From assembly GCA_963797455.1 (NCBI GenBank), contig CAWCPK010000001.1:1338155-1402154 (forward strand): a DNA stretch of 64,000 nucleotides. The letters run 5' to 3'. The notes beneath the pieces are model-generated. The model was given only the letters and a program-made list of their open reading frames with translations. It was not told the origin of the DNA and did no database searches. Origin of the DNA: an uncultured Actinomycetota bacterium. Lineage in GTDB: Bacteria; Actinomycetota; Actinomycetes; Mycobacteriales; Jatrophihabitantaceae. The translations under genes were made by a program, and so were the position numbers. Shown one piece after another: positions 24,902 through 26,379 of the stretch (within the stretch, counting starts at the first letter, position 1; each line of letters opens with the position of its first letter).

Positions 24902-25417
24902 ATGCTCGGCACGACGGCGCGGTTAGTGCTGTTCGCGTCGTCGTACGCGCCGCTGCTGGCCCTGTTCGCCGTGCTCGACTCGTTCGGGCGCGGCTGGCCG
25001 AGCGTCGTCTGCGCCTCAGTGGCCGGGGCGAGCGTCGTCGCCCTGTTCGCCGTCTGGCGATTGATCGGCACCGTCGCACCCGACCACCTGCGCCTTTCGA
25101 GCAGCAGGTCCCGCGACGCTGATGTCATGGCGTACTTCGTCAGCTACGTCGTTCCGTTCGCCGCGGTCGACGCCACAACGAAGACGAAGATCGCGCTCGG
25201 GGTGTTCGCCGTCATCCTGGCCGCCTTGTACCTGCGTGCGTCGATCTTCTACATCCACCCGCTGCTGCTCATGGCCGGGTATCACGTCTACGACGCCGTG
25301 ACCGAGTCCGAGGTTCCGGTCACGGTCGTCACCCGACGGCGGTTCATGCCGCAGCACGAGGTGCTGTGGGCCTCGCCCGTCGGCCCGTCGGTCTTCGTCG
25401 AGCGGAATCCCGCATGA
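24902..25417 (+). CDS. small 4-TM membrane protein (candidate KwaA-like)
   Basis: 171 aa with four predicted helices; stop overlaps the next start (ATGA). Confidence 0.5.
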   Translation: MLGTTARLVLFASSYAPLLALFAVLDSFGRGWPSVVCASVAGASVVALFAVWRLIGTVAPDHLRLSSSRSRDADVMAYFVSYVVPFAAVDATTKTKIALGVFAVILAALYLRASIFYIHPLLLMAGYHVYDAVTESEVPVTVVTRRRFMPQHEVLWASPVGPSVFVERNPA

Positions 25418-26379
25418 CTGCCGAGCAGGCACTCGCAACCCTCGAGGCGTTGGGCCCGCTAGCCGAGCTGGGCCTTGCGTTCAGCGTCGTCGCACCGGAT
25501 GCCAGCGGTGAGCCGCACGCGTACCGGGTCACGCTGAGCGACGGCGGGAAGCAGGATCTTGCCGAGATCGCCGAGCGCACCCGGGCGAGCCTCCGGCAGG
25601 CCACCCTGCTTGCCTACGACGCCGTCGGCACGATCCCGTCCTCGCACGCCATGTACGTGCCTGCCGCCGGCGCAGCGACTCTTACGCCCACCCAGGCCGT
25701 CATCGATTCCGGCGACGCCGACGCGTTCGACGCGAGCGTCGAGTACGCGCGGACGGCCAGCACGGCGGTCGCCCGGTTCTCGACGCAGGCGGGCCTATCC
25801 GCCGCGTTCTACCGCGTCGGCGAGTCGCTATTGCAGTTCAGCAAGAAGAAGCTGCTCGGGTTGGTCTTCCGGGACGGCCAGTACCACCGGCTCGAACCCG
25901 CCGACGTGCTGCTGATGAAGTCGAGTTTCGACGTGACCGTGGTGGGCGGGTTCGCGTTCTTCACGTCGAAGGCGACGTTCGAGCGCGCCTTCGGTTTCCT
26001 CGACGAACTGCAGCGGACGAGCGCGGAGACCTTCGACGTGGTCACGTCCGCGCTGCGCATCGAGGGGATGGCAGCGCTGCGGGCCGCGGCGACGAGCAAC
26101 CCGCAGATGATGGCGAAGATGGCCTCGATCAAACGCAACATGGACGACGATCCGGGCTACGCGGACGCGATGACGATGCGCCGGCTGGTGCGCTTCGTGC
26201 ACGCTCATCCGGATCTCGGTATCGAGGTCACCAGCAGCGCAGCCGGGCAAGCGCTCGTCTTCGACCCGTCCCCGGCGAAGCGGTTCCGGATCCTCAACCT
26301 GCTCAACGACGACTACCTCAAGTCCGTCCTCACCGAACGCGAGTACGAAGTGACGTCCAAGGTGCATCGCCGGGCGTAG
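25414..26379 (+). CDS. ~321-aa cytoplasmic protein (candidate KwaB/DUF4868-like)
   Basis: Translationally coupled to the upstream membrane protein; no enzymatic motif; locally lower GC. Confidence 0.45.
   Translation: MTAEQALATLEALGPLAELGLAFSVVAPDASGEPHAYRVTLSDGGKQDLAEIAERTRASLRQATLLAYDAVGTIPSSHAMYVPAAGAATLTPTQAVIDSGDADAFDASVEYARTASTAVARFSTQAGLSAAFYRVGESLLQFSKKKLLGLVFRDGQYHRLEPADVLLMKSSFDVTVVGGFAFFTSKATFERAFGFLDELQRTSAETFDVVTSALRIEGMAALRAAATSNPQMMAKMASIKRNMDDDPGYADAMTMRRLVRFVHAHPDLGIEVTSSAAGQALVFDPSPAKRFRILNLLNDDYLKSVLTEREYEVTSKVHRRA

Follow-up and report, generated by a model that had tools for sequence, protein, structure and literature searches.

A very probable two-gene Kiwa operon of a divergent actinobacterial clade on a Jatrophihabitantaceae chromosome

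A stretch of 64,000 nucleotides from an uncultured soil bacterium of the Actinomycetota, Jatrophihabitans-like and of the family Jatrophihabitantaceae (assembly GCA_963797455.1, contig CAWCPK010000001.1, positions 1,338,155 to 1,402,154; hereafter the window) contains two overlapping genes, kwaA and kwaB. Together these very probably constitute a chromosomal two-gene operon of the anti-phage and anti-conjugation system Kiwa, in the form found in a divergent actinobacterial clade. Considering the sequence profiles and structure models, membership of the Kiwa family is very likely, and by analogy it is likely that the detailed mechanism is of the kind worked out for Escherichia coli. In its anatomy the pair does not depart from the known Kiwa architecture and it represents an already described kind of system. 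A Kiwa-like module had been suggested at this position in a preliminary description made from the letters of the DNA, on account of a small protein with four predicted transmembrane helices whose gene overlaps, in an ATGA, that of a soluble partner between acyl-CoA dehydrogenase and lon genes. The list of open reading frames (ORFs), the sequence, the hydropathy analysis and the structure models agree with each of these features, and the suggested identity was borne out by the profile searches reported below.

Family membership and predicted structure of KwaA and KwaB

The larger protein, KwaB, matched the Pfam family PF16162 (KwaB-like, formerly DUF4868) over residues 139-307 with 47.2 bits, where the gathering score is 26.3 (E 3.3e-12). 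The membership of DUF4868, which the preliminary description had left to a search with hidden Markov models (HMMs), is thereby confirmed. Eight PADLOC models for KwaB were matched as well, the best of which was PDLC00233 (5.5e-15), and PDLC00224 and PDLC00237 span residues 37-315. For KwaA, thirteen PADLOC models were matched; the best, PDLC00221 (5.4e-18), aligns residues 1-149 of the protein with positions 1-151 of the 173 in the profile. Moreover, a protein encoded on a 1.94-Mb contig in NCBI/ENA that is 100% identical to KwaA (P0062) has a precomputed match to PF28043 (KwaA). The only significant matches of the two proteins in the PDB are the chains of the solved Kiwa complexes of E. coli. 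This holds for searches by sequence (KwaA with 9mrg_A at 5.7e-4, KwaB with 9mrx_K at 1.1e-4), for searches with profiles made from 38 homologues of each protein (5e-14 and 1e-9, respectively) and for the comparison of predicted folds, in which the alignments span the whole length of the models and which had been proposed earlier as a check of KwaB.

The folds were taken from AlphaFold2 models, which are monomer predictions built on alignments of homologues. In KwaA, four hydrophobic segments were found according to Kyte-Doolittle (residues ~6-25, 34-56, 75-90 and 97-125), and the model (predicted local distance difference test, pLDDT, 82.4) has four long helices at 4-25, 32-55, 72-87 and 93-113. 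Strands are placed in the loop after the second helix (61-70) and at the C-terminus (128-134, 139-144, 153-161 and 164-167), and the model predicts a small beta domain that is formed by the cytoplasmic loop (~57-74) together with the C-terminal part (~126-171). The top seven Foldseek matches of this model in the PDB were all KwaA, led by 9mrx_A (E 1.8e-7, template-modelling score 0.74), the next non-Kiwa entry having an E-value of 0.77. In addition, the motifs YxxPF and (N/H)PxL are invariant in the actinobacterial clade and common to E. coli KwaA. KwaB has no hydrophobic segment over its 321 amino acids (aa) by the same hydropathy measure. Its model (pLDDT 86.6), in which strand and helix elements alternate at the N-terminus, predicts an N-terminal alpha/beta (Rossmann-like) domain followed by the C-terminal DUF4868 domain, as in the solved KwaB. 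The top six Foldseek matches were all KwaB (312-325 aligned columns, E 1e-10 to 5e-8, template-modelling scores 0.50-0.56; next entry E 0.44), and the best of these was 9mrx_D (E 1e-10, score 0.52, 325 columns). The isoelectric points of KwaA and KwaB are 9.25 and 5.74, respectively.

As is characteristic of Kiwa, kwaA lies directly 5' of kwaB on the same strand, in an operon arrangement (Table 1). The ATG of kwaB (25414-25416) overlaps the TGA of kwaA (25415-25417) in an ATGA that couples the translation of the two genes. This 4-bp overlap is shared by all five loci that were checked, namely those of the window, of the related genome GCA_032160665.1 (L001) and of L005, L091 and L092. At the 70.5% G+C of the window, the GC content of the third codon position (GC3) separates coding frames cleanly; in their own frames kwaA and kwaB have values of 0.91 and 0.88, and the neighbouring genes range from 0.89 to 0.95. 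The codon usage of the pair looks native. The preliminary description had also spoken of a visibly lower GC content. A dip does exist (0.677 versus a window mean of 0.705, with a standard deviation of 0.021 for windows of the same size), but at the 8.6th percentile, or 1.3 standard deviations, it is marginal.

Both ORFs are intact. Contigs from the independent Logan short-read assemblies of ERR11718635 and ERR11571143 (L086 and L087) match positions 24220-26550 of the window at 99.9% and 99.7% with zero gaps, and contain the same genes of 149, 171 and 321 aa. Both ORFs are full length relative to their homologues and no insertions or deletions (indels) were seen in the two short-read assemblies. 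Thus, the ORFs of kwaA and kwaB are not artefacts of an assembly that has frameshifts in neighbouring genes. Such switches of frame occur mid-gene in the conserved genes for a thiolase (~20446), the second acyl-CoA dehydrogenase (ACAD2, 23949-23984) and Lon (~27650 and ~28496), where tblastn with the intact L001 proteins matches more than one frame, in agreement with the GC3 frame plot. They are either indel errors of the long-read assembly or real pseudogenes; the short-read contigs end before these sites.

Table 1. Positions of the Kiwa pair and of adjoining features in the window
Feature	Position	Strand	Description
kwaA	24902..25417	+	171 aa, ATG start, four transmembrane helices; membrane protein
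kwaB	25414..26379	+	321 aa from in-frame ATG at 25414; soluble
Orphan protein	24335/24368..24817	+	149-160 aa, helical N-terminal part, Lys/Ala/Pro-rich basic tail; between ACAD2 and kwaA
Conserved region 5' of kwaA	24846..24901	+	putative promoter and 5' untranslated region of the operon
G+C hairpin CGCCGGGCG-TAG-CGCCCGGCG	26367..26389		10-bp perfect stem, kwaB stop codon in the loop

Chromosomal slot and distribution of the pair

The pair has two acyl-CoA dehydrogenase genes on its 5' side and a convergent lon on its 3' side, which is the location given before. The nearest relatives of the window genome, according to a search of a set with a single genome for each species, made with the neighbouring acyl-CoA dehydrogenase, are Jatrophihabitans species and metagenome-assembled genomes (MAGs) of Jatrophihabitantaceae, with 76-88% identity in that enzyme. 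The syntenic block BaxI - ACAD1 - ACAD2 ... lon - pirin was surveyed by tblastn and is present in eight genomes, the window genome included. In two of the eight, those of the window and L001, kwaA-kwaB is situated between ACAD2 and lon; the comparison of relatives that the preliminary description had called for thus showed that the pair is not conserved in all of them. The interval of the other six holds, among others, genes for an AAA-ATPase-like protein and a second pirin, an acyl-CoA synthetase, a LacI-type regulator with an ATPase-like protein, a PfkB kinase and small transmembrane proteins. Considering this variation in cargo across syntenic genomes, the ACAD2-lon interval is a variable slot in Jatrophihabitantaceae that Kiwa occupies as an accessory system. 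A second pirin gene is found in most of the slots compared and is absent from that of the window (24289-26409, compared with L001, L006-L009, L012 and L013).

Between the window and L001, the synonymous divergence (dS) is 0.73 for kwaA and 0.77 for kwaB, and 0.51-0.67 for the flanking genes. The ratio of nonsynonymous to synonymous divergence (dN/dS) is 0.24 and 0.17 for kwaA and kwaB and 0.15-0.19 for the flanks, so that both genes are under purifying selection. As dS is near that of the flanks and dN/dS is low, the comparison suggests that the pair predates the divergence of the two genomes and has been kept by purifying selection since.

The homologues give a broader view of the distribution. 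A word-index search with KwaB yielded 61 homologues, almost all with PF16162, a domain carried by all 60 full or partial KwaB homologues that have a Pfam entry. The closest of them are metagenomic (76-84% identity), and the named sources are a 'Pseudonocardiales bacterium' MAG (79%), Jatrophihabitans telluris (56%) and the genera Nocardioides and Plantibacter. In an exhaustive HMMER search for KwaB, 349 clusters (formed at 50% identity) reached E <= 1e-3, most of which measure 310-335 aa and align along their entire length. The 70 homologues of KwaA are almost all 171-172 aa long and annotated as PF28043 KwaA.

More specifically, the actinobacterial clade includes the proteins of GCA_032160665.1 (P0004/P0064), J. 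telluris (P0020/P0103), Nocardioides (P0054), Plantibacter (P0058/P0122) and Mycolicibacterium (P0117). Like the window, its members have a KwaA of 171-172 aa, a KwaB of 321-335 aa and the ATGA overlap, and they are 43-84% identical to the window proteins. The L001 pair occupies the same chromosomal slot as that of the window, whereas outside L001 the pair is found in other contexts. In an Actinomycetota MAG (L091, 1-17002) it forms part of a conjugative element that also encodes a TrwC relaxase and a TraG/TrwB coupling protein and contains genes of IS21 and IS110; a protein of 1032 aa encoded after KwaB in that element has no Pfam match. In Plantibacter sp. VKM Ac-2885 (L092, 1-9200) the pair stands beside genes for a KAP-family NTPase, a QueC-like protein, TatD and Lsr2, and in J. 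telluris it is surrounded by unrelated metabolic genes, of sugar metabolism. These varied contexts are consistent with the horizontal mobility of Kiwa that has been described in the literature. An accessory, patchy distribution, together with evidence of mobility from the homologues, is thus seen for this pair as for Kiwa in general.

Signals that could belong to the operon were found on both sides. Some 55 nucleotides 5' of the kwaA ATG are nearly invariant between the window and L001-L004, despite a synonymous divergence of ~0.75 in the genes, and this stretch is the putative promoter and leader of the operon itself. It contains a -10-like hexamer of the TAnnnT type (TAGGCT at 24867-24872), which varies as TAGGCT/TACGCT between the two lineages, and a Shine-Dalgarno-like GGGTGAG just 5' of the ATG; a scan for the sigma-70 consensus gave no match in the region 5' of kwaA. 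On the other side, the hairpin of Table 1 occupies the 29 bp that separate kwaB from the convergent lon. Its fold has a z-score of -1.45 versus shuffled sequences, and a scan for the terminator consensus found no terminator with a T-tract. The hairpin may, at most tentatively, act as a bidirectional terminator.

The protein encoded between ACAD2 and kwaA had been noted before as a small, histone-tail-like neighbour. It does exist, but it is not a partner of Kiwa elsewhere. In 5.8 billion clusters it has only two homologues, at ~50% identity, and no tblastn match was obtained in any of the Kiwa-bearing loci surveyed. L001 lacks it, the kwaA gene there following directly upon ACAD2, and the homologue P0134 is flanked by genes for Lnt and an adenosine-kinase-like protein, with no Kiwa genes in the vicinity. 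No significant match was found in Pfam, NCBIfam, PADLOC, PHROG or the PDB. A role as third Kiwa component was therefore rejected, and we treat the orphan as a gene unrelated to Kiwa. The mycobacterial protein HbhA also combines a coiled coil with a tail rich in Lys, Ala and Pro. A likeness to HbhA was discarded, as BLASTP with an HbhA query gave no similarity (E 31).

A few further features of the window were recorded. An IS1595-family transposase gene (14839-15795, + strand; DDE_Tnp_IS1595 1.8e-32, zinc ribbon 1.7e-15) lies ~9 kb 5' of the Kiwa genes, and no link to the pair was seen. Inside lon (minus strand) a 30-bp unit is repeated 3.2 times with 96% matches at 27078-27172; it encodes a repeated RRLRSEHDTE-like stretch and, compared with the Lon of L001, seems to have been inserted. 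A small ORF on the minus strand (51078-51311) resembles by eye a ribbon-helix-helix antitoxin (MRTTVRLDDDVAAAAEQL...) and adjoins a large one (51349-53355, minus strand) that by eye resembles a fragment of the transcription-repair coupling factor Mfd. Finally, a long run of GV/GVGV-type repeats in one frame at 61459-61848 (+ strand), antisense to the ORF at 59865-62561 (minus strand), indicates a low-complexity repetitive stretch in that large ORF.

Weighing of the evidence and alternative explanations

Several observations weigh against the assignment of the pair to a functional Kiwa system. The proteins are only ~13-16% identical to their E. coli counterparts, and the template-modelling scores of KwaB are moderate (0.52-0.54). 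The NCBIfam equivalog thresholds are not reached by either protein (KwaB with NF041623, 58.2 bits versus a cutoff of 200; KwaA with NF041622, 52.2 bits versus 100). However, the corresponding E-values of 7.4e-16 and 6.3e-14 are significant, which argues for a divergent relative or subfamily, rather than for non-homology or for a close orthologue of the model systems. In the literature no paper was found in which an actinobacterial Kiwa was tested. The locus also provides little that is typical of a defence region. An insertion signature of a mobile element was looked for and not found: there are no direct or inverted repeats of note around the pair, no tRNA marks an insertion (the only one of the window is at 43098-43171) and the nearest transposase, of IS1595 type, is 9 kb off. 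A defence island was rejected: PADLOC, applied to 44 other ORFs of the window (a set chosen by a GC3 filter, which may omit frameshifted genes), found no second defence system and returned only generic single matches to BrxL (1.8e-13), to several Cas3 helicase models (best 2.4e-10) and to PbeA (3.4e-7). Housekeeping Lon most likely accounts for the BrxL match, and a helicase such as Mfd probably for those to Cas3.

The residues implicated by mutagenesis in the function of E. coli Kiwa, at the KwaA-KwaB interface and in the DNA contacts of KwaB, also bear on the assignment. In the HMMER alignment, outside of which the N-terminal interface residues fall, D80 of E. coli KwaA aligns with D61 of the window protein, and Y157 of KwaB with Y157. 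The six predicted DNA-contact residues of E. coli KwaB are not conserved column for column: R142, R167, K187, R233, N134 and D169 align with S143, L167, A187, A234, V135 and K169, respectively, in an alignment that at 13-16% identity may be shifted by a position or two. Basic residues adjoin most of these positions in the window KwaB (K144-146, K169, K186 and K235). This replacement, taken together with the low identity and sub-threshold scores and with a KwaA that is shorter than that of E. coli, would be explained if the pair were a Kiwa homologue with a diverged trigger, effector chemistry or both; for instance, KwaB might bind a target other than entering DNA, or KwaA might sense a signal of the actinobacterial envelope. 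We consider such a divergence quite improbable, since fold, domain order, transmembrane topology and gene coupling have all been kept and the basic residues next to most contact sites, with the possible shift in the alignment, soften the apparent loss. Moreover, the Kiwa of another monoderm bacterium, Streptococcus thermophilus 90730, still protects against phages, which supports the view that an outer membrane is not required (PMC11514479). A more far-reaching proposal would be that the clade with the 171-aa KwaA forms a Kiwa lineage with a mechanism of its own, which resides in the chromosome and is inherited vertically, with a shortened sensor tuned to a monoderm, thick-walled envelope and a DNA-binding surface of KwaB rebuilt from different residues. 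This is a speculative and rather unlikely proposal, which, if true, would mean that the trigger or nucleic-acid target recognised by the lineage could differ from that of E. coli Kiwa.

The surroundings of the pair invite yet another explanation. A position among housekeeping genes, with neither integrase nor tRNA nor flanking repeats, a native-looking codon usage and a dS close to the values of the flanking genes, suggestive of long residence, would all suit a lineage-specific housekeeping pair of a membrane and a soluble protein that has no defence role and is possibly tied to the fatty-acid oxidation genes or to lon. Yet such a pair is absent from six of the eight syntenic genomes, whose slots contain unrelated genes, it recurs in unrelated contexts that include a conjugative element, and every family and fold match is to Kiwa; a housekeeping role is thus very unlikely. 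Likewise, the frame switches in the neighbouring thiolase, ACAD2 and lon of this assembly could be taken to mean that the pair is an inactive, decaying remnant of Kiwa. With both ORFs of full length, identical lengths and no indels in two independent short-read assemblies, and purifying selection on both genes, decay is exceedingly improbable. A Kiwa operon of the divergent actinobacterial clade accordingly stays the preferred interpretation.

The practical consequences are modest. The annotation is confirmed, in that the genome carries Kiwa and that the PADLOC HMMs and Pfam recognise the pair, where under the equivalog models of NCBI it would remain 'hypothetical' or 'DUF4868'. The pair is of some value as an example of Kiwa in the Actinomycetota, and its clade, which has a compact KwaA of 171 aa, offers a candidate for the study of Kiwa sensing in a thick-walled monoderm host.

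Comparison with characterised Kiwa systems

Tested Kiwa systems come from E. coli, Ralstonia and S. thermophilus. If the window pair works by analogy with that of E. coli (PMC11785009), tetramers of KwaA in the cytoplasmic membrane would hold dimers of KwaB on their cytoplasmic beta-barrels, in an extended array. KwaA would sense the disturbance of the envelope or membrane that is brought about by phage attachment, by ejection or entry of DNA or by conjugative contact, and the complex would thereby be activated (PMC11785009). KwaB would then bind the incoming DNA through the DUF4868 domain without cutting it, and would stall replication forks and block late transcription, so that the cell would survive rather than be killed (PMC11785009).

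The most detailed comparison is that with the E. coli systems of O55:H7 and the ECOR strains (PDB 9mrg, 9mrr, 9mrx, 9mtn, 9nyu and 9o0i; PMC11785009), where, like in the window, kwaA is followed by kwaB. E. coli KwaA has four transmembrane helices and a cytoplasmic beta domain or barrel composed of the first intracellular loop and the C-terminus, as the window KwaA has in its model, and E. coli KwaB likewise consists of an N-terminal alpha/beta domain and a C-terminal DUF4868 domain. The differences lie in size and setting. With 171 aa versus 195-203 aa, the window KwaA is ~24 aa shorter, mostly at the N-terminal end that comprises the first transmembrane helix and the first extracellular loop. 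Furthermore, the window pair is located between housekeeping genes of a high-G+C actinobacterium and not in a recognisable mobile element or island. The system of S. thermophilus 90730, which is likened to the window pair by description, belongs to the Firmicutes and lies in a CRISPR-associated defence island; its host is a monoderm, and there Kiwa protects against phages (PMC11514479).

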